The notes: generated by a model not told the origin, from the letters alone. A stretch of DNA of 64,000 nt from Bdellovibrio sp. (GCA_036676395.1 JAKFCY010000002.1:224001-288000); one strand, 5' to 3'. Counted from the first letter of the stretch, positions 13,401 to 22,292 are shown. A program made the numbers and translations.

Positions 13401-14996
13401 ATGAAATACGTAGACCTAAATCTGGACAGCCGCTTACAAACTAACATCTCTAATCTTGGATACGTTGATGCAACGCCAATCCAAGTCCAAGCCTTCGAAC
13501 CGATTATTTCGGGTAAAGATGTGGCGGGTCTTGCGCAAACTGGAACTGGAAAAACGGCAGCGTTTTTAATTCCAATTATTGAACGCATTTTAAAAGCAGA
13601 GACTAACCCTGAAAGCGAACGTGCTTTCGTGGATTGGAAAGCCTTCAATCAAGTTTTGATTTTAGTTCCAACGCGCGAACTAGCTGATCAAATTCATGAA
13701 AATATTTTAAAATTAACTGCCGGCACTGGTTTAAAATCAGCAACGTTTTACGGTGGCACTGGTTACGACAAACAAAAAGAAGCGTTATCTGGTAATTTAC
13801 AATTCATGGTTTCAACACCAGGCCGCTTAATTGATCTGTATAAAGAGCACCATGTTGATTTCAAAAAAGTAAAAGCGATTATCTTTGATGAAGCAGATCG
13901 TATGTTTGATATGGGTTTTAAAGATGATATGAAATACATCTTAAGCCGTATCGAGCGCACTCGCCAGTTTTTAGTGTTTTCTGCAACTTTAAATTTTGAT
14001 GTATTAAATACTGCGTATCAATTTGGTTCTGAGCCTGTTGAAATTAATATTTCAAAAGATGTGGCTAAAGCTGAAAATGTAAAAGATATGATTTATCACG
14101 TTGGTAATGCTGAAAAACCTCAGTATTTGCTTTCGATTTTTAAAAAAGAAAAACCTACGCAAACAATTATTTTTACAAATTTCAAAAATAACGTCGATCG
14201 CGTAGCGCATTTTTTAACAGACAACCAAATTCCTGCTATGGGAATTTCAAGTTTGATGTCACAGGCACAACGCACGCAAGTGATCTCAAAATTCAAAGAA
14301 TCAAATAATCAAAACGTATTAGTAGCTACTGATGTGGCTGCGCGCGGTTTAGATATTTCTGATGTGGATTTAGTTGTGAATTACGAATTACCCCAGGATT
14401 GTGAATCATATGTTCACCGTATCGGTCGTACTGGTCGCGCGGGTAAAGAAGGTAAAGCATTTTCATTAGTAAGTGATCGCGATGTTGAGTCGTTATATCG
14501 CATCGAAGAATTCACTAAAAAGAAAATTGAAGCTGGTTATCTGGAAGACGTTGAATTAGTTAAAGACTTTAAAGCTTTAACTGATCATGAACCTAAATTT
14601 AAAAAATCATTTGATCGTAAACCACAAGGTGGCGGCAGATCAGGTGGCCGCCCAGAACGTGGTGGTAAACCAGGTTTCAACAGAGATCATGATGGTAAAG
14701 CTCACGCGGGTCCTCGTCATGATGGTCCAAGAAAACCGCATCACCGCGACGAACGTCCTCGGGATGAACGTCCTAAGCACGATAAAAAACCAATGCACGC
14801 TAAGCATGAAGGTGTAAAACACGATGTTCATGGTAAGGGAAAACCTAAACATGATCATAAGCGCCCGCACCCTAAAGCAAATGGCGTAACGCCAGGTCAC
14901 TTGGTGCATAAGCGCACGGGATCGCATCGTAAACCTGTACCTCAGGCCGGTCTAGTTAACTCTGTGAAATCGTTTTTCAAGAAGTTATTTACTTAA
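13401..14996 (+). CDS. rhlB: DEAD-box RNA helicase (RhlB/RhlE type) with a basic, His-rich disordered tail
   Basis: AQTGTGKT, PTRELA, TPGR, DEAD, SAT, ARGLD and HRIGRTGR motifs. The rhlB label rests on context beside pcnB. Confidence 0.85.
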   Translation: MKYVDLNLDSRLQTNISNLGYVDATPIQVQAFEPIISGKDVAGLAQTGTGKTAAFLIPIIERILKAETNPESERAFVDWKAFNQVLILVPTRELADQIHENILKLTAGTGLKSATFYGGTGYDKQKEALSGNLQFMVSTPGRLIDLYKEHHVDFKKVKAIIFDEADRMFDMGFKDDMKYILSRIERTRQFLVFSATLNFDVLNTAYQFGSEPVEINISKDVAKAENVKDMIYHVGNAEKPQYLLSIFKKEKPTQTIIFTNFKNNVDRVAHFLTDNQIPAMGISSLMSQAQRTQVISKFKESNNQNVLVATDVAARGLDISDVDLVVNYELPQDCESYVHRIGRTGRAGKEGKAFSLVSDRDVESLYRIEEFTKKKIEAGYLEDVELVKDFKALTDHEPKFKKSFDRKPQGGGRSGGRPERGGKPGFNRDHDGKAHAGPRHDGPRKPHHRDERPRDERPKHDKKPMHAKHEGVKHDVHGKGKPKHDHKRPHPKANGVTPGHLVHKRTGSHRKPVPQAGLVNSVKSFFKKLFT

Positions 14997-15018: not shown

Positions 15019-16350
15019 ATGAAAAAAAGTATTCTGACCATTTTGTTAATGGCGGCTTTGCCGTCATTCGTTTTTGCCCAAGAAGACCCTATTCAGACGA
15101 TGAAGTTAACTTCAAATTACATTGTTCGTAATTTGAATGGTGATCAAGTCTGTAACTTACCAAAAGGTGCTGTTGTCGGTGTTGTTGGCGTAGCGCCAGA
15201 TGGCCAGCGTTTAAAAATTATGGCCTTAACGGGTCCATGTGCTGGAGTAATGAATGGTTTTGTCTATGTGAACTATCTTCGTCCAGCTTCAAAAGACGTG
15301 AATAAATACACAGAAACAGCGATGGTTGAAACTGCTGGCTTAAGTTTACGTAAAGAGCCAAGTGTTGAAGATGGAACACATTCTTGCAGTTTACCTGCGA
15401 ACACGAAATTAAATATTATCGGTGAAGTGCAAAAACGCAGTCGTTGGGTGCAAGTTGAAATTCCTAATCCTCCGAAAGGTTGTCCAACGACCGGTTGGGT
15501 TTCAGCCAGTTATTTAAAACCTGATTTCGATTTAAAAACTCTGCCGGTAATTAAAGGTCAGGCCTTAACTGAAGCTCGCACTCCAAAAGATTGCACTGAT
15601 TGCGAACAAGGTGAAACTTCTGGCGGTAAAAAATCAGAAGTTAAAAAAACTGTCGAAACGGCTCAGCAGATTGAAAAATTTGTAAATCAACCCCCAGAGC
15701 TTGCGGCTGGAGTTCCTAGTCCGTTTACCGAGTTTGCTAAAGAATTACAGCGTACAAAAAAATGTCCGAATCCCAAACAATCTGATTACAAATGTAACCG
15801 TGGTTTAATGCAAATGCCTGCCGAAGGCAATGCTGGTTTCTGCGGAACTCATCACTATACTCCAGATCGTCCGCCTGGAGTTGATACGCATGCAGCTCCG
15901 CATACAGCTTGTTCGTTATTAGCTGTCGCGCAAGAATGGAAAAAGACGGCGTGCCCGAATGACAATGCCGGATGCAAAATCGCTTGGGGAGACATCTCGC
16001 ATACAACGCGCCCTTTGTTTAACAAACACAAAGAACACACGCGTGGTGAGTGTATTGATATTCGCCCATTTAATACGGGATCGTTTCGTGATGCTGGTCG
16101 TACGGTGACTGCAAGTGATTATGACCGGGCAAAGACTACAGAATTTTTAAAACTAGCAAAAAAGCATGGCGCAGATATTCGTTACAGTGATCGTAAGCTA
16201 ATGAATGCAAACAAAGATCTGGGTATTGCGTGGGGCGGATCAGCGCATGCCAATCACATGCATATCTGTTTTGAAGCTTCTAATTCAAAAGTGCAGGCAG
16301 CCTGCAATAACTTAACGGTGGATCCAAGAGTATGTTCAGAAGTTCAGTAA
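15019..16350 (+). CDS. Secreted protein with SH3b-like repeats and a MepA/LAS-type Zn murein endopeptidase domain
   Basis: Signal peptide; LSLRKEPS...WVQV...GWVSASYL SH3b pattern; GDIS...HKEHTRGECID (H-x6-D) and HANHMH motifs. Confidence 0.75.
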   Translation: MKKSILTILLMAALPSFVFAQEDPIQTMKLTSNYIVRNLNGDQVCNLPKGAVVGVVGVAPDGQRLKIMALTGPCAGVMNGFVYVNYLRPASKDVNKYTETAMVETAGLSLRKEPSVEDGTHSCSLPANTKLNIIGEVQKRSRWVQVEIPNPPKGCPTTGWVSASYLKPDFDLKTLPVIKGQALTEARTPKDCTDCEQGETSGGKKSEVKKTVETAQQIEKFVNQPPELAAGVPSPFTEFAKELQRTKKCPNPKQSDYKCNRGLMQMPAEGNAGFCGTHHYTPDRPPGVDTHAAPHTACSLLAVAQEWKKTACPNDNAGCKIAWGDISHTTRPLFNKHKEHTRGECIDIRPFNTGSFRDAGRTVTASDYDRAKTTEFLKLAKKHGADIRYSDRKLMNANKDLGIAWGGSAHANHMHICFEASNSKVQAACNNLTVDPRVCSEVQ

Positions 16351-16781
16351 TTTTAGCGTCATTAAGTTTAGTGTTACATGCGCACTCAGCAATGGCTGCG
16401 ACTTGTGGTAATTATGTTCAGGCTTACAGCGAATACACACAAAAAGTAGATGGTAAAATCGTAAAAAAACATTCTATTTTTGAAATGACAGATTGGGCTC
16501 GTAACAGCCGTTTTCAAGGTTTAGTTTTGACTGAAAAAGCTCCGGCCAATGCTGAAGTTATTTTAGAATCTAAATTAAGTAAGAAAGCTAAAACGGTTAC
16601 AACTAAAGCTTCGAAAATTACTCCGTTTATCCGGGATGAAAAATATCGCGTGGTAGAGATAGATTTAAATAAACAATTAGGTTCTGCCCCCACGCAAGAG
16701 GGCAGTTACACTGTGAAAGTCTTAGCTGATGGCAAAGAAGTTTGTTCAGAGAAGAAGTTAATCTACGACGACGGCGATTAA
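16332..16781 (+). CDS. Hypothetical secreted protein
   Basis: Signal peptide (…SAMA); overlaps the upstream gene. Confidence 0.7.
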   Translation: MFRSSVILASLSLVLHAHSAMAATCGNYVQAYSEYTQKVDGKIVKKHSIFEMTDWARNSRFQGLVLTEKAPANAEVILESKLSKKAKTVTTKASKITPFIRDEKYRVVEIDLNKQLGSAPTQEGSYTVKVLADGKEVCSEKKLIYDDGD

Positions 16782-16833: not shown

Positions 16834-16889
16834 CTCTGTATTTCGGTTTACAGTTTATTCATTTAAAAAGTGTAAACCGAAATACAGAG
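16834..16889. repeat. Perfect 19-bp inverted repeat
   Basis: CTCTGTATTTCGGTTTACA-18 nt-TGTAAACCGAAATACAGAG. Confidence 0.85.
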
Positions 16890-16912
16890 CGAAAAAAAGA
16901 GTGCGCAGAAAT

Positions 16913-16944
16913 AAAAAAAGGAGCTTGGTTGAAGCTCCTTTTTT
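16913..16944. terminator. Bidirectional intrinsic terminator
   Basis: AAAAAAAGGAGCTT-ggttg-AAGCTCCTTTTTT between convergent genes. Confidence 0.85.
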
Positions 16945-16963
16945 CTTTTTTTAAAAGCACGTC

Positions 16964-19006
16964 TTATTTAACGTGTTTTTTCATTTTTGCTGCTAAGTCA
17001 GATTTCTCTTCAGCAGTTAAAGGAAGCGGGTATAAACGAGAAACCCATTGTGGGGCGTACACTCTGTAGTAGTTGCCTTGAGAGTAATTTTCACCGCGGA
17101 AGCCACGATCGCCTGATGAGCCCATCCACCAACGTGAATGATACGGAAGATCTTCACGCGGGATAGTCATTAATTCGCCGTTGTAGTCAGAAGCTTGAGT
17201 TCCTAAGGCTTGCGCGATTGTTTTGATCGCGGCATTGTCGGCTTCAGCTGAACTTAAATTATCTAACATGACAATTTGCACACCTGATAATTTTAAGCTT
17301 TCAACAACCGCTTTAGCTACCGGGCCTACAGCAACAACAGCTTTGATATCTGATCTGCCAGCTACGGTTTGATAAATGCGTTTGTAAGTTTCAGTCATCT
17401 CAGGTTTAGTTACCCCTGCGATTAAATCAGCAGGATTAAGTCCTAAGGTATCAACCGGTAGTGAACGTTGGATAAAGTAATTTAAGCCAACACCCGTTTT
17501 AGATAACATCGCTTGTAATTTTTGACCTTCAGCGCCAGTTACTGCGCGGGCAGAGAAGAAGTCATCGTGTGAAGTTTGATCTATCACAACATAAACTTGA
17601 GCGTCACGACCACGGCCACGGTATGTTCCTGTGTAACCGAAAGAATCATGACTTACGTAATTGATTCCTAATTGTTTCATATTCGGCCAAGATACTAAAG
17701 CTTCTGATAAAGCACATGCCCCTTGATCGTAACGTAAATATCCGCAAGGGCCGTAATCGAAATCAGGCTTATCAGCAGACCAAGTTTTTGCATTATAACG
17801 AGGAGATTCGTAAGGTAAATCACGAGGTCCCATGCCGATTAATGCGGTTTTCTTAGCGTTCATTCCAGAATCTAAATCTGCTGGTTTGTATGGAAATTGC
17901 GAATTTTTATCATTGTACGCGCCCGCATCAGAATAAACCTGGATCGAGTTTGCGCCCCAACGATTAGACGTTGTGCCTTCAGAACCCATTCTCCAGTTTG
18001 TGTTGAAAGCAAAGTCACGGAAAGGAATCGGCGCATAACCTTTATAAGTGTAACCAGCTTGTAAGCGCGCTACTAATTCTTCAGGAGTTGCTTTTTCATC
18101 GATATCTTGCGGTAACCAGTTTTTGTTAGCTACTTTGTAAGAAGCTACACGTTGAGCCGCACCAGAGAAACCGGCTTTAATGTTTTCCATTGCAGCGTCG
18201 CCACCAAGATTTGGATTAGCGCCACCTGGATGTGGAACTCCGATAGCTAAGATATCATTTTTAACTTCGATATCCATATTTTCTTTAAACCATTTTTTCA
18301 TTCCACGCGTATCACAGTTTTTCATTTCATAAGAAACAGAACATTTACCACCACGAGCATTAACCCATGTTGCCAAAGAGGCTTTACCACCAGAACCGAC
18401 GCCCATGAATAAAGAAACAGTCTGAGAGTTCGTCGCCATCATGTTATCGAATAATTTATGACGGTATTCTACGATCGGAGATTCTTCGCCTTGTTCGATC
18501 CATTTAAAACGAGGATCGTCTTCAAGTTGTCCGTTAATTGTGTAAACGAAAGTATTTAAGAATAAATAACTGCGATGAATTCCTAAGTGATTTAAAAATC
18601 TTTGTGTACGTGTTCCGGTTGACCCCGTAAATGCGCGGTTAGAAACGTTTTCATCCTGAGCGCCTTCTTGGCCCACGACGAAAACTTTTACGCTCTCAGG
18701 AGTCAAACGACCGCGATACCACATCGGACCAAATTCCCAACGAAATTTTTCATCTGTTTTTGCAGTTCCACCTAAAGCTTCGACACCGATTGAACGGTAA
18801 TTCGGAGTTGAACCAAAAAGTTCTACCCATTTAGAATCTGCAGGAGCTCCTGCATCGTATTCTGCTGGTGAACCACGACGGGCATCAAAGGGTAATGCTA
18901 CGTTAATTGATTGCGGGTCACGTTGTTGTGTTGTGAACGGGGCGTGTGTGCACGACGCGATAGTCATCACACCAGCTAATAACAACGCTGTTGGTTTGAA
19001 TTGCAT
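16964..19006 (-). CDS. Lipoprotein with two tandem uracil-DNA-glycosylase-like domains
   Basis: IASC lipobox. Domain 1: YRGR..VFVVGQEGAQDE...RAFTGSTG...LG..RSYLFLN...HPG. Domain 2 (degenerate): YRGR..VYVVIDQ...RAVTGAEG.KLQ..L...G...NY...VVAVG. TAAGGAG SD. Confidence 0.75.
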   Translation of the reverse strand: MQFKPTALLLAGVMTIASCTHAPFTTQQRDPQSINVALPFDARRGSPAEYDAGAPADSKWVELFGSTPNYRSIGVEALGGTAKTDEKFRWEFGPMWYRGRLTPESVKVFVVGQEGAQDENVSNRAFTGSTGTRTQRFLNHLGIHRSYLFLNTFVYTINGQLEDDPRFKWIEQGEESPIVEYRHKLFDNMMATNSQTVSLFMGVGSGGKASLATWVNARGGKCSVSYEMKNCDTRGMKKWFKENMDIEVKNDILAIGVPHPGGANPNLGGDAAMENIKAGFSGAAQRVASYKVANKNWLPQDIDEKATPEELVARLQAGYTYKGYAPIPFRDFAFNTNWRMGSEGTTSNRWGANSIQVYSDAGAYNDKNSQFPYKPADLDSGMNAKKTALIGMGPRDLPYESPRYNAKTWSADKPDFDYGPCGYLRYDQGACALSEALVSWPNMKQLGINYVSHDSFGYTGTYRGRGRDAQVYVVIDQTSHDDFFSARAVTGAEGQKLQAMLSKTGVGLNYFIQRSLPVDTLGLNPADLIAGVTKPEMTETYKRIYQTVAGRSDIKAVVAVGPVAKAVVESLKLSGVQIVMLDNLSSAEADNAAIKTIAQALGTQASDYNGELMTIPREDLPYHSRWWMGSSGDRGFRGENYSQGNYYRVYAPQWVSRLYPLPLTAEEKSDLAAKMKKHVK

Positions 19007-19144
19007 AAAAGGGTCTCCTTAATTGTGTTAATACAACCCTTTTAGTTTATGGAATTTCGTGATTTTTTCATAGGCCTGAAACATAACCCTTAAAGACCTT
19101 GGTCTAGTGAAATGTTTCAAGATTTGGTTAGGACTATTTTTCTA

Positions 19145-20806
19145 TTAATTTAACCGTTCTAACTGTTCAGCAAGCTTATCAAAGCTTTTGCTGTCGGTCG
19201 ACTTTGCCGGAGTTTGTGCAGACCACTCTTTTGAAAAAAGATTCTTAATAACGCTTTTGTAGTTCTCGTCGTTACACGATGTTAACGAGTCTAGTTGTGG
19301 AAACACAGATTTCAAATTTGCCACTAGTTCAGATAACTTAAGCGGTGAATTCATCACCTTTTGTTCGCTGTATTTAGCACAAGCTAAGTTGTTTTGCGTT
19401 TGTTCGGCGCCAACGATTGAATCAGTGTTGTTTTCGGCGTCAGCTAATTTGCCTTGAGCGATTTTTAATTCTCCACCCACCATAACAAATTGAATTTCAG
19501 AGGCTTGAGCAGTTACGATTTGTGTGTACGGGTTTGAATTACGTGATTTTAAACGAATTGCTACGATATCAGCTAAATAGCCTTCTTCAAGGCGGCCTAA
19601 GCGATCGGCTAATCTTAGCGCTTTCGCCGGATTGATCGTCATCATTTCAAAAAGTTTTTTATCAGTTAATGATTTCATCGCTTTTGATTGGCCGTAACGA
19701 CGCGCGATTTTAACTTCGTCTAATAGATTTTTTGTTCCTGATGGAGTCCAATCAGAACCTAAAGTGATATTTACATTTTGTTTTAAAGCTAATTCAGCAT
19801 TTAAGGTATCGCCATAGAGAACTAAATTTGAAAACGGAGACCATACCAGTGAAATATCTTTTTTCGCAGCATCTGCTAAATCTTTTTCATCCATACCTAC
19901 GCCGTGAATGATCACTAAACCTTTTTCAGCCAGGCCTATTTTTTTTGCGAATTTATATTCTAATTTATTGTAAGTGTCTTTTGCACTGCCTTCAGATAAA
20001 TGCACGATCAGGCTTCTGATTTCACCTGTTGTCACAATGCGGGTAAGGTAGCTGATATATTTTGTAACGCCTTCTAAGAATTGCGTTTGACGGGAATTCA
20101 CTGCACCTTCAGTCGCTTGCAGTGAAGTCGTCACTTCAGAGATTGATTTATTTTCTGAAATCACGGTGGGTAAAATTTTATCTTGGTAGAGTAAAGCACC
20201 TTCTTGATTTACGATTTCCATGCTAGAGCGCGCATCTGAAGCAATGCCATAATCGCTTTCGATTTCTACGTTGCGGGCCAAGATGCCTTTTGTACAAGTG
20301 TCGTCTTGTCCGATACCCTGAACACTGGTTACACCACCTGCTAAGGCTTTGATTTCAGCGTACTGGTAAGTTTGGCAATATAAAGAATCTTTGTCGCTGG
20401 CTGTGCCCAGAACAGGGTTATTGAGCGGGCCAGTTACATTTTTTTTGTAACCAGGAAGTCCGCGCCAATTAAAGCGATTACCAAACTGACCATGAGCTTC
20501 TGACCATAATGGAATCACGTTATATTTTAAGTGACCGTGTAAATCGATAAATCCTGAAGATAGGATTACGCGACCGATGTCGGCTTCAAGAATTTTTTTA
20601 ATATCGCGTGAAACTTCAAATGGGGTCGTTGATTTTTTAGTGATTTTGCCATCTTCGATTAATAAATAGATTTTGCGCGAACGTAACTCAGGTTTAGCTG
20701 GATCTGGTTCGTAACCTTCGATGTAAGTGCCAGCGGCCATCGCTGTACTGGTTAAGGCAAATGTGGTGATCAGTGCAGAAAGAACATTAAAAAATGGTTT
20801 TTTCAT
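19145..20806 (-). CDS. Exported metal-dependent amidohydrolase, nucleobase/nucleoside deaminase type
   Basis: Signal peptide (…STAMA); GFIDLHGH, HLSEG (HxxE), IIHG, LGSDW, TINPAKAL and G.LEEGYLAD motifs. Confidence 0.85.
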   Translation of the reverse strand: MKKPFFNVLSALITTFALTSTAMAAGTYIEGYEPDPAKPELRSRKIYLLIEDGKITKKSTTPFEVSRDIKKILEADIGRVILSSGFIDLHGHLKYNVIPLWSEAHGQFGNRFNWRGLPGYKKNVTGPLNNPVLGTASDKDSLYCQTYQYAEIKALAGGVTSVQGIGQDDTCTKGILARNVEIESDYGIASDARSSMEIVNQEGALLYQDKILPTVISENKSISEVTTSLQATEGAVNSRQTQFLEGVTKYISYLTRIVTTGEIRSLIVHLSEGSAKDTYNKLEYKFAKKIGLAEKGLVIIHGVGMDEKDLADAAKKDISLVWSPFSNLVLYGDTLNAELALKQNVNITLGSDWTPSGTKNLLDEVKIARRYGQSKAMKSLTDKKLFEMMTINPAKALRLADRLGRLEEGYLADIVAIRLKSRNSNPYTQIVTAQASEIQFVMVGGELKIAQGKLADAENNTDSIVGAEQTQNNLACAKYSEQKVMNSPLKLSELVANLKSVFPQLDSLTSCNDENYKSVIKNLFSKEWSAQTPAKSTDSKSFDKLAEQLERLN

Positions 20807-20942
20807 AGTGTCAAACTTCTGGCCACAGGCCATTATTTGGCTGTTTGAGCGTAAGTCAAAGCAACCACATTTGTCTTGTTAACGTTTGTGTATCCGCAAT
20901 GGATTAAATGCAAAAACAGAGCTGAGATTTGTCATGGACGTG

Positions 20943-21725
20943 TTAGCGAGTAAGTGACTGAATCACAGCCTGTGTAGCCTTAGGAAGTTTACTTGACGCG
21001 GGTATGGCTAAGTAGAGATTTTTTTTGCGAGTAGCAATATCTTGAGAGTGAAATTTACGTTTTTCTAAGAGGGGAGTTTTCGGAACAATGGCGATTCCCA
21101 CACCTTTTTCAACAAGATCATAAATCTGATAAATAGAACTGACACGAATAAATTTCTGATTCTTTTTTGAACCAGAAACTTGCTTCAATAAATCTCCCGA
21201 ATCACCGTAAATCCAACGGTGTTCAGGTATTTTATCGAGCGCTATTTTTTGCTTCGAAATTAATGCAAAACTTTCTGAAGCTAAAGACAGGTAATTGATC
21301 TGTGCTGATTCTTCTTTGCGATTGACCACCGCCATGTCGATATTTCCTTGCAGCAACAACTCTAAAGCTTGGGTGGATGTCTTTTCCACAATATCTAAGT
21401 CGACCGATTCAATAAGGGAAGGGCTGAGCTTCGGCCAGAAATAGTGTTCTAGAGCTGCTGTTAGACCTGCAATGCGCACAAGGCTTCGCCCTTGAGCCGT
21501 GGTCCAACGTTCTAAAGGTTCAGAAAGATTTACAATCTCTTGTCCTTTTTCAGTCAGGATGACCTTGCGATTATTCCGTATAAATAAGGGCTCACCGACT
21601 GATTCTTCAAACAACTGAATCTGGCGAGTTACAGCGGAAGGGGCAATAGCCAGCTTCGTAGCGGTTTTAGCGAAATTCAGGCTGTGAGCGGCCTCTATGA
21701 ATACTTTCAAATAGCGATAATCCAT
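20943..21725 (-). CDS. LysR-family transcriptional regulator
   Basis: N-terminal HTH (NFAKTA..L.IAPSAVTRQIQ.FE...G..LF.RN.R.V.LT..G) and C-terminal V..G.GIAIVP. Confidence 0.92.
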   Translation of the reverse strand: MDYRYLKVFIEAAHSLNFAKTATKLAIAPSAVTRQIQLFEESVGEPLFIRNNRKVILTEKGQEIVNLSEPLERWTTAQGRSLVRIAGLTAALEHYFWPKLSPSLIESVDLDIVEKTSTQALELLLQGNIDMAVVNRKEESAQINYLSLASESFALISKQKIALDKIPEHRWIYGDSGDLLKQVSGSKKNQKFIRVSSIYQIYDLVEKGVGIAIVPKTPLLEKRKFHSQDIATRKKNLYLAIPASSKLPKATQAVIQSLTR

Positions 21726-21824: not shown

Positions 21825-22292
21825 ATGAAAAATTTAATGATTATGACTTTTATGGTTTTAGCAACAGTCACAGTTTCTGCTCAGGAATTAACTTTTAAAG
21901 ATATGATGAATGTGCTGCCTAATATGGAGCGCGCAGGAACTGAAGGTAAAGACTATAAGTGTTCAGTTAAAACTGAATGGTTAGCTAATGGTGATTTAAA
22001 AGTCGTAGCAACTCAGCAGTACAAAGACTGGGATCCATCAGCTATGGAAATCGTTTTAACTGCGGCAAAAGATGCTGAAGTGTCTATGGATAAATATGAT
22101 GACACGATTGAATACAACATCAGCCAGTCGACGTTGTTAAAAGAAGAAGATGATTACCGCGTCGATTTATATGAATCGTTTAGCTTTAATGTTGAGAATG
22201 ATGTGATTACTGGTTTTCGGGTTCAGATCGCAGAAGTGGACCACGAGAGTGATCCACATGAAGATACGATTTATTGTAATCTAACGAAGTAA
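21825..22292 (+). CDS. Hypothetical secreted acidic protein
   Basis: AGGAG SD, signal peptide, D/E-rich, two Cys; divergent from lysR. Confidence 0.8.
   Translation: MKNLMIMTFMVLATVTVSAQELTFKDMMNVLPNMERAGTEGKDYKCSVKTEWLANGDLKVVATQQYKDWDPSAMEIVLTAAKDAEVSMDKYDDTIEYNISQSTLLKEEDDYRVDLYESFSFNVENDVITGFRVQIAEVDHESDPHEDTIYCNLTK

Follow-up and report, generated by a model that had tools for sequence, protein, structure and literature searches.

Enzymes of the uracil-DNA glycosylase (UDG) superfamily are textbook cytoplasmic repair proteins, and a tandem UDG that is exported and lipid-anchored yet keeps its active site intact comes as a surprise. What such a protein could do outside the cytoplasm, beside an exported amidohydrolase, is the question raised by a locus of Bdellovibrio sp. 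(GCA_036676395.1 JAKFCY010000002.1:224001-288000), a stretch of 64,000 nucleotides that was analysed as a whole and is called the window below. Two genes on its minus strand are concerned. The first encodes an amidohydrolase (19145..20806; 553 aa from the start MKKPFF) and the second a lipoprotein with two UDG-fold domains of the BdiUng type (16964..19006; 680 aa), here named UDG2x. A first-pass annotation of this DNA had proposed that the amidohydrolase acts as a deaminase producing uracil, hypoxanthine or xanthine and that the glycosylase releases these bases outside the cytoplasm, in order to harvest prey DNA or nucleotides or to attack incoming phage DNA. The present analysis showed that UDG2x and the amidohydrolase are a functional pair that is obligately co-inherited. 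The reading that we favour, tentatively, is that the locus is the exported, cell-envelope form of a widespread two-enzyme module, composed of a BdiUng-type N-glycosylase and a dedicated amidohydrolase, which would work by a 'deaminate, then excise' mechanism.

The search seeded with UDG2x kept 80 genome loci of 200 confirmed relatives. Judged by record title, 64 of them are of Bdellovibrionota type, including two oddly labelled metagenome-assembled genomes (MAGs; L061 and L064), and 16 come from other phyla (Acidimicrobiia and other Actinomycetota, Anaerolineae, Dehalococcoidia, Acidobacteriota, Saprospiraceae, Woeseiaceae, and gammaproteobacterial and campylobacterial MAGs). An amidohydrolase homologue was found within the fetched flanks at 48 of the 80 loci, namely at 16/16 loci from other phyla and at 32/64 Bdellovibrionota-type loci; the count was 19/32 when only Bdellovibrionota-type loci flanked by 5 kb or more on each side were taken. 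The pair occurs in at least four orders and orientations (upstream on the same strand, upstream divergent, downstream on the same strand and downstream convergent), and in the downstream same-strand arrangement one or two small exported genes sometimes lie in between. When the two genes were unlinked, the amidohydrolase was found elsewhere in the genome in all ten cases tested, with E-values of 2e-86 or better.

The phylum itself was surveyed with an even sample of 201 Bdellovibrionota genomes, in which related genomes are not independent of one another, using cut-offs of E ≤ 1e-20 for the UDG2x family, E ≤ 1e-90 for a strong UDG2x match and E ≤ 1e-30 for the amidohydrolase. A UDG2x-family match was present in 42 genomes, strong in 22 and mostly belonging to a distant paralogue family in the rest. 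The amidohydrolase was found in all 22 genomes with a strong match, and each of the 25 genomes with the amidohydrolase had a UDG2x-family match, while a weaker UDG2x-type match stood alone in 17 genomes and neither gene was detected in 159. Both genes were also missing from a sister genus of the same family (11/11 genomes, 99-100% complete).

The search was also run in reverse, with the amidohydrolase as seed and metagenome contigs as target (80 of at least 359 confirmed relatives kept, most with 27-33% identity and many on short contigs). A UDG-like gene stood beside the amidohydrolase at 34 of these 80 loci, and at 14 of the 24 that offered at least 1.5 kb upstream and 3 kb downstream; five of the ten loci with sufficient flanks and no UDG gene carry a marine amidohydrolase with a lamin-tail domain. 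The 34 UDG-like neighbours comprise 9 tandem proteins of the GQEGA type, 16 single-domain proteins of about 270 aa with the motif GQDP[AGS] and 9 others. Among them are orthologues of BdiUng (Blr0248, structure 5gn2), a UDG of Bradyrhizobium diazoefficiens that, according to the main text of its description, prefers single-stranded DNA (ssDNA) (PMC5449639). The open reading frame (ORF) L130:171-980 matches the BdiUng chain end to end (E 1.8e-96), and here and at about 15 further loci (L093, L095, L117, L128, L149 and others) a single-domain BdiUng orthologue lies directly upstream of an amidohydrolase of the same Trp-type subfamily as that of the window. On one metagenome contig the two are naturally fused (L156:1807-4308): a protein of 834 aa joins a complete BdiUng-like domain through an Ala/Thr/Pro linker to the amidohydrolase, with no stop. 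In this fusion the motifs GQDPA, HxH, HLSEG and VWSPLSN are intact, the Pfam UDG model scores 29.5 bits, which is above threshold, and Amidohydro_1 is matched with an E-value of 7.7e-17. No fused form of more than 1190 aa was found in the protein database, which is weak evidence. The conclusion that the two proteins are a functional pair follows from their co-occurrence, from repeated rearrangement without loss of linkage and from this natural fusion, and their adjacency is far beyond chance.

Domain 1 of UDG2x (18107..18886, minus strand; about residues 41-300) was matched to BdiUng by sequence (phmmer against the PDB, E 2.7e-18, residues 70-220 versus 14-155). Domain 2 (17036..17800, minus strand; residues 403-657) has the same fold. 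With an AlphaFold2 model of UDG2x (predicted local distance difference test, pLDDT, 87.1; predicted template modelling score, pTM, 0.87; 38 homologues), Foldseek returned 5gn2 first (E 2.8e-11), followed by family 4 UDGs, UdgX and SMUG1. Superposition by VIA-align of domain 2 on the whole 5gn2 chain gave a Z score of 19.7 and a root-mean-square deviation of 2.5 Å over 233 residues, and a Z score of about 10 against family 4 UDGs. Comparison by hhalign showed one half to be homologous to the other (probability 98.4%, E 1e-14), and UDG2x is therefore an internal duplication. BdiUng is described in the same main text as a homodimer held together by a C-terminal hairpin (PMC5449639), and the tandem UDG2x is plausibly a pseudo-dimer mimicking that arrangement.

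Among 8000 scored candidates, 793 homologues of UDG2x with E ≤ 0.001 were found, identities of 40-90% are kept across whole Bdellovibrionota families, and the ESM Atlas gave solely clusters labelled 'hypothetical / UDG family'. The Pfam UDG model (PF03167) stayed below its gathering threshold on the window protein (18.4 versus 24.3 bits); UDG2x homologues of other phyla pass it with 37-44 bits, and many database homologues carry it. The median isoelectric point (pI) of UDG2x is 8.8 in exported forms and 9.5 in cytoplasmic forms. Since a separate canonical single-domain UDG is encoded in the same genome (G000:C2:203478-203951, about 20 kb upstream of the window; PF03167, 73.8 bits), UDG2x is not the housekeeping repair enzyme. 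The distant paralogue family met in the phylum survey also consists of tandem UDGs, with open frames of about 780-950 aa, usually without an amidohydrolase; one example, G024:C1:473956-476313, has similar counterparts in 17 other sampled genomes and in its own genome lies about 1.5 kb from an amidohydrolase.

Active-site residues were mapped by combining the 5gn2 alignment with the BdiUng pocket list given in the published main text (Q56, D57, P58, A59, E62, L69, G71, A73, M92, N94 and H168; PMC5449639), the equivalent of H168 being matched by motif position. Domain 1 has the motif G112-Q-E-G-A-Q-D-E119 followed by F126, G128, T130, F149, N151 and H259-P-G, so that its pocket equivalents are Q113, E114, G115, A116, E119, F126, G128, T130, F149, N151 and H259. 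The base-reading Asn94 and the catalytic His168 of BdiUng are thus represented, by N151 and H259. In 71/71 full-length homologues, from both compartments, Q113-E119, R124, F126, G128, T130, N151 and H259-G261 are invariant, and the F149 column holds Phe in 64, Tyr in 4 and Ile in 3. Motif A reads GQEGA, with Glu114 and Gly115, in all 71 tandem homologues, and not GQDPA with Asp57 as in BdiUng. In domain 2, D476-Q477 stand in place of motif A and R514 in place of the base-reading Asn. This half has its own near-invariant residues (D476, Q477, R487, G494, Q495, R514 and D519) and is for this reason regarded as altered rather than decayed.

UDG2x has five cysteines (C19, C222, C231, C421 and C431), of which the last four belong to the mature protein, and none of them form the four-Cys Fe-S motif of family 4 and 5 UDGs. 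Cys222 and Cys231 are kept in 55-56 of 56 exported forms versus 6-7 of 15 cytoplasmic forms, and Cys421 and Cys431 in 24/56 versus 0/15, the cytoplasmic homologues often having Ala or Gly instead. By this conservation pattern, the Cys pairs look more like disulfides gained after relocation than like Fe-S ligands. The first-pass annotation had described two UDG-superfamily folds, a first domain that retains the family motifs, a degenerate second domain and no visible Fe-S Cys motif. The two folds were recovered by sequence, Foldseek, VIA-align and hhalign alike, the first domain proved to have a complete active site that is near-fully invariant, and the lack of an Fe-S signature was borne out; for the second domain, the loss of the catalytic positions stands but, given its own invariant residues, it is not simply degenerate.

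These data bear on the alternative that the genes stand side by side without any relation in function and that the UDG-like protein is a structural lipoprotein with no activity. The sub-threshold Pfam score of the window protein would agree with it. Perfect co-occurrence, linkage maintained through rearrangements, the natural fusion and the invariant active site all argue against it, and we consider it barely credible.

The amidohydrolase matches Pfam Amidohydro_1 (E 4.6e-25). The HxH, HxxE and Asp motifs named in the first-pass annotation correspond to H90/H92 on strand 1, H269-x-x-E272 with its His on strand 5, and D352 on strand 8, and are invariant in 30 sequences. What had been missed is strand 6, where the usual (I/V)HCPxSN has become VWSPxSN: the His is replaced by Trp322 (VWSPFSN in the window protein), which aligns with the His of IHCPESN in 4dyk and 4gbd. 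Trp is found at this position in nearly all family members, of all phyla. The strand-6 His is kept and has a role in COG0402-type deaminases. The best NCBIfam models are of this COG0402 type, deaminases and chlorohydrolases, with a best score of 83.4 bits versus a cut-off of 617. All 25 deaminase equivalogs listed (guanine, 5'-deoxyadenosine and 8-oxoguanine deaminase and others) were far below their cut-offs and matched mainly the C-terminal half. With an AlphaFold2 model (pLDDT 90.7), the top Foldseek matches were AtzA, homologues of 5'-methylthioadenosine/S-adenosylhomocysteine (MTA/SAH)/adenosine deaminase, TrzN and guanine deaminase, at 15-18% identity, and isocytosine or 8-oxoguanine deaminase is also among the best relatives. 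Because of the strand-6 Trp, the low identity and the scores below cut-off, the protein is placed in a distinct subfamily for which the term deaminase is borrowed from its relatives. This subfamily is deaminase-like, of mononuclear type, and part of the deaminase/chlorohydrolase clade.

The Trp-type amidohydrolases include a marine branch (P0239; L109, L124, L134, L138 and L139) in which a signal peptide is combined with a lamin-tail domain at the N-terminus. P0239, the one sequence of this branch that was read, is labelled Candidatus Poseidoniaceae and ends in a hydrophobic stretch resembling a membrane anchor.

Export signals had been claimed for both proteins, and both were found. Export was judged by reading the N-termini and with a hydrophobicity script (11-residue Kyte-Doolittle mean). 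The UDG2x signal peptide (18950..19006, minus strand), MQFKPTALLLAGVMTIASC, has a Lys-containing n-region and a hydrophobic core followed by the lipobox I-A-S-C, with predicted lipidation at Cys19. That of the amidohydrolase (20735..20806, minus strand; residues 1-24), MKKPFFNVLSALITTFALTSTAMA, is classical, with KK, a hydrophobic core and the cleavage-type site AMA|AG, and a hydrophobic N-terminus is also found in its Bdellovibrionota-type homologues. A Cys occupies the Cys19 column in 42 of 56 exported-type homologues, and an N-terminal pattern scan detected a lipobox in 27/57 Bdellovibrionota-type ORFs and in 1/15 ORFs of other phyla. A hydrophobic 11-mer at the N-terminus of UDG2x was present in 57/57 Bdellovibrionota-type sequences (mean at least 1.98) versus 0/15 evaluable sequences of other phyla (maximum 1.28). 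In 9 of these 15, the first conserved UDG2x motif, RGxPxEYDxG, begins at most 12 residues from the start. The amidohydrolases show a like split between compartments on inspection of their N-termini, which the script separates less cleanly, as a beta-sandwich lies within the part that precedes HxH. One locus (L055:5944-11519) is an exception, with a UDG2x that has no signal peptide, a reprolysin-like metallopeptidase and then an amidohydrolase with a lipoprotein-like signal.

The first-pass annotation had held export to be unusual for such proteins, and had asked whether the pair and its signal peptides occur together in other phyla. The pair is indeed linked there (16/16 loci), but no signal peptide was seen in the 15 evaluable UDG2x ORFs. 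Since relatives of both proteins in other phyla have no signal peptides, export is the derived state. The catalytic residues are the same in both compartments; it follows that the chemistry on the substrate does not differ between the inside and the outside of the cell and is independent of cytoplasmic machinery such as polymerases. A role specific to predation, as first suggested, is weakened by the cytoplasmic module of Acidimicrobiia, Chloroflexota, Acidobacteriota, Saprospiraceae and other MAGs, and likewise by the sister genus, in which no genome was found to have the pair.

How the two enzymes might cooperate was considered in the light of BdiUng, which is described in the main text of PMC5449639 as excising uracil (U), 5-hydroxymethyluracil (5-hmU) and xanthine from ssDNA. 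We infer that both enzymes act consecutively on one nucleobase-bearing substrate. In the favoured mechanism, a base that bears an amino group (C, 5-hydroxymethylcytosine (5-hmC), G or A) would be turned into the oxo form by the amidohydrolase. The N-glycosidic bond would then be cut by domain 1 of UDG2x, in which Glu114 would be the general base and Asn151 and His259 would read and stabilise the oxo base; domain 2 would serve as the non-catalytic, substrate-binding half of the pseudo-dimer. The substrate would probably be single-stranded nucleic acid or oligonucleotides outside the cytoplasm, e.g. prey or environmental DNA, and an exported nuclease/phosphatase of the EEP family, adjacent in several lineages, could cut the abasic product. 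This order of steps is favoured because the glycosylase keeps the oxo-base-reading Asn and His, and because U, 5-hmU and xanthine, the bases removed by BdiUng, are the deamination products of C, 5-hmC and G and so just the bases expected from a deaminase of this clade. The nature of the neighbours (EEP, phosphodiesterase and NADAR-like proteins) and the basic pI of UDG2x favour nucleic acid or nucleotides as the substrate. Of the deaminate-and-release scheme first proposed for this locus, the functional pairing and a chemistry coherent with the BdiUng spectrum have therefore stood; its deaminase is less secure, as the strand-6 His is lost, and its sequence of steps is conjectural.

Several observations weigh against the 'deaminate, then excise' reading. 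The activities of both proteins are predicted from sequence, and the order of their steps is our proposal. We know of no amidohydrolase-fold deaminase that acts on bases inside a polymer. With the strand-6 His replaced by Trp, the reaction may not be a deamination, and every NCBIfam deaminase model lies far below cut-off. In motif A of all tandem forms Asp has become Glu and Pro has become Gly, and the substrate may therefore differ from that of BdiUng. The recurrent S41 and C11 peptidases of the neighbourhood are not explained by a purely nucleic-acid pathway. The marine lamin-tail amidohydrolase adjoins genes for cysteinyl-tRNA synthetase and an S15 peptidase and has a UDG gene nearby in 0/5 loci, so that dependence on a UDG is not universal in the wider amidohydrolase subfamily. 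Export was judged by heuristics. Finally, BdiUng gave no rescue of an Escherichia coli ung mutant, as stated in the main text of PMC5449639.

The flanks of the pair allow other orders of events to be weighed. An exported EEP-family gene (Exo_endo_phos_3) divergently adjoins UDG2x at 8 Bdellovibrionota-type loci, and another lies upstream at the Saprospiraceae locus; a PDB sequence search with the neighbouring EEP protein gave no match. A small exported protein resembling the N-glycosidases NADAR/YbiA is encoded at 7 loci, with weak matches (Pfam NADAR E 9e-4, Phage_30_3 E 3e-5, YbiA E 0.005). At L041 the NADAR-like gene (about 220 aa; L041:3898-4575) and the Exo_endo_phos_3 gene (L041:4583-5698) lie on the minus strand, divergent to the tandem UDG gene, and the same is seen at L030, L038, L053 and L054. 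A gene for a type I phosphodiesterase/nucleotide pyrophosphatase was found at 4 loci, including L043 and L053. Such exported phosphodiesterase and EEP neighbours would fit a scavenging island, in which UDG2x first strips the base from extracytoplasmic nucleic acid or oligonucleotides and the amidohydrolase then deaminates or ring-opens the free base, for salvage of nucleobases or nitrogen. The amidohydrolase has close relatives, by structure and by sequence, whose substrates are in all cases free bases, nucleosides or small heterocycles, and consecutive enzymes are commonly fused or co-inherited, which would agree with this order. The invariant Asn151 and His259 and the U, 5-hmU and xanthine spectrum of BdiUng, however, point to bases that are already deaminated and have no amino group left, and no nucleobase transporter was found among the conserved neighbours. 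We regard excision before deamination as unlikely.

The peptidases suggest a different kind of substrate. In other phyla the amidohydrolase is fused to, or followed by, a C-terminal-processing-type peptidase of family S41 at no fewer than 11 of the 16 loci (Pfam E 1e-14 to 1e-18; the S41 part resembles the D1 protease CtpA), and at one further locus a reprolysin-like metallopeptidase lies between the pair. At 4 Bdellovibrionota-type loci a C11 peptidase adjoins. Instead of nucleic acid, the pair might act on a small molecule to which a nucleobase is joined, for instance an antibiotic of the peptidyl-nucleoside or nucleotide type or a wall precursor linked to UDP: the peptidase would trim the peptide, the amidohydrolase modify the base or an amide, and the UDG fold cut the glycosidic bond, in a detoxification or catabolic route relocated to the envelope in Bdellovibrionota. 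One invariant active site serving both cytoplasm and envelope would agree with this, and flanks that differ from locus to locus are expected of a self-contained cassette; beyond the peptidases, the other-phylum flanks are almost wholly unconserved, with 1 small cluster common to two of the 16 loci. Every characterised UDG-superfamily enzyme, BdiUng included, acts on DNA, though, and neighbours of the EEP, phosphodiesterase and NADAR-like kinds suggest a substrate among nucleic acids or nucleotides. UDG2x is also basic, and genes for the synthesis or transport of such compounds were not seen. A small conjugate is, on balance, an improbable substrate.

The patchy distribution of the pair (42/201 genomes of the phylum with a UDG2x-family match, and sporadic occurrence in other phyla) would suit a conflict system. 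According to this view, the cytoplasmic trio of UDG2x, amidohydrolase and S41 peptidase would act against phages or in abortive infection, as an effector that deaminates invading DNA and strips it of purines or pyrimidines, and the exported form would attack foreign DNA or competitors. The UDG-fold DNA glycosylases Brig1 and Brig2 are reported as proven defence enzymes (PMC11078745; 10.1101/2025.10.29.685425), and genes for caspase, CHAT, subtilase, patatin and STAND-like ATPase proteins are among the neighbours in other phyla. Against it, PADLOC-DB 2.0 gave 0 families for the window pair and for the UDG2x and amidohydrolase-S41 of L068. The separate S41 protein of L058 had one weak match (PDC-M02B, E 3.7e-4), and the matches in 4 of 44 neighbours were all weak and generic. 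Viral contigs gave 34 pattern matches, none of them a relative. Identity of 40-90% kept across Bdellovibrionota families and the absence of a composition anomaly look more like a stable metabolic trait, and a defence role appears quite unlikely.

The two genes were described in the first-pass annotation as co-oriented, 138 bp apart and sharing one downstream terminator, and this was reproduced by the ORFs, the spacer scan and the downstream hairpin. The intergenic spacer (19007..19144, minus strand; 138 bp) opens after the tandem stops TAA TAG of the amidohydrolase gene, and AAGGAG is located 8 nt 5' of the UDG2x ATG at 19006. No terminator-like hairpin was detected on the minus strand within the spacer. 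The sole strong candidate downstream of the pair is a terminator-like hairpin between convergent genes (16909..16949), and as A- and T-runs flank it on both sides it is bidirectional and able to serve both. Beside this hairpin, also between the convergent genes, lies an inverted repeat of 23 nt (window 16834-16889; 96% complementary, 10-nt loop). Parts of this repeat also match a second contig from a related metagenome, and it may be a dispersed palindromic element.

Upstream, the amidohydrolase ORF is open to an in-frame ATG at 20833 (19145-20833), which would give 562 aa. A consensus scan placed a promoter-like -35/-10 pair, TTGACT-16 nt-AATAAT, at 20832..20859 on the minus strand (10/12 matches); the evidence is weak, since shuffled sequences contain more sites of this kind than the whole region does. 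Because this pair (20859-20832) overlaps the earlier ATG, the start at 20806 is the likelier one. A comparison with Rfam found neither a riboswitch nor a leader 5' of the pair, both in the window and at 10 related loci; a single S-adenosylmethionine (SAM) riboswitch occurs, in L068, and goes with a divergent OsmC gene. The GC content is about 40% and flat over the whole window, with no composition anomaly. In metatranscriptomes, four short contigs of one soil RNA run match parts of both genes at 91-98% identity. They are not counted as proof of expression because they come from relatives and carry-over of DNA is possible.

A LysR-type regulator (window 20943-21725, minus strand) and an exported protein of 155 aa (window 21825-22292, plus strand) are each common to 1/80 related loci. 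The LysR gene was considered as regulator of the pair and rejected, in view of this count and of a 98%-identical groundwater metagenome contig that diverges at 20923. Both genes lie outside the module, and the region looks like a recent insertion or deletion beside the pair. On the other side, window 15019-16781 encodes two exported proteins, one of 443 aa (SH3_3 and a Cys/His-rich C-terminal part) and one of 149 aa (no family), which were found only in the six closest relatives, and window 13401-14996 encodes a DEAD-box helicase whose long C-terminal tail (about 130 aa) is very basic and rich in His, Lys, Pro and Gly. At Halobacteriovorax-like loci, two small exported proteins of no known family are inserted between the pair.

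In the searched literature, no description was found of the UDG-amidohydrolase pairing, the tandem architecture, the Trp-type partner, the fusions with S41, UDG or lamin-tail domains, or the joint relocation to the envelope. The pairing occurs in six phyla or more, is seen in one case as a fusion and adjoins orthologues of BdiUng, the sole characterised member; it defines a pathway undescribed in that literature. The components come from known superfamilies, and the pathway itself has a real chance of being new in kind. Its amidohydrolase could turn out to be the first enzyme of that fold to partner a DNA glycosylase, and the physiological role of BdiUng, so far unexplained, receives a concrete hypothesis that can be tested. 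The pair is present in the cultured strains 'Bdellovibrio sp. qaytius' and 'Pseudobdellovibrio sp. HCB154', and these carriers are available for experiments.

Among known systems, BdiUng is the closest to UDG2x. Both UDG2x domains share its fold, domain 1 keeps the equivalents of Q56, A59, E62, G71, N94 and H168, and BdiUng orthologues adjoin the same amidohydrolase subfamily. The words amidohydrolase, operon and deaminase do not occur in the main text of the BdiUng paper (PMC5449639). UDG2x differs in having two domains in one chain, a lipoprotein signal and a domain 2 without the catalytic residues, in GQEGA versus GQDPA, and in Phe for Leu69 and Met92 of BdiUng. The amidohydrolase, for its part, shares with COG0402-type enzymes (AtzA, 4v1x; TrzN; guanine deaminase, 6ohb; MTA/SAH deaminase, 4f0r; isocytosine deaminase, 8is4) the fold, HxH, His-x-x-Glu and the strand-8 Asp. 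It departs from them in its 15-18% identity, in Trp for the strand-6 His, in scores below every curated family cut-off, and in a helical insertion at about 200-260, a C-terminal extension and a signal peptide; in other lineages the Trp-type enzyme is, moreover, fused to an S41 peptidase, a lamin-tail domain or a UDG. Brig1 and Brig2 resemble UDG2x as UDG-superfamily proteins in a non-repair role with a patchy distribution. They differ in being single-domain, cytoplasmic and stand-alone proteins that target hypermodified phage bases, with no amidohydrolase partner described (10.1101/2025.10.29.685425). That text also mentions APOBEC3G and UNG2.

A further parallel lies in vertebrates. The AID/APOBEC cytidine deaminases work there with UNG, first deaminating and then excising. 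The logic proposed for the window pair is alike, a base made by a deaminase being removed by a UDG-superfamily glycosylase to leave abasic DNA. The candidate deaminase of the window is a TIM-barrel metallo-hydrolase and not of the cytidine deaminase (CDA) fold, and the pair is bacterial, obligately co-inherited and extracytoplasmic, with DNA as its presumed target. Bacteria might have assembled, from unrelated folds, an APOBEC/UNG-like way of destroying DNA by deaminating, excising and cleaving, with bases deaminated directly in ssDNA by the amidohydrolase and then excised by a dedicated BdiUng-type enzyme. The cytoplasmic form, with the S41 peptidase as regulator, would act on invading DNA, and the exported Bdellovibrionota form, with the EEP nuclease, would dismantle prey or environmental DNA. 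We consider this extension rather doubtful; if it is true, BdiUng would gain its missing physiological role.

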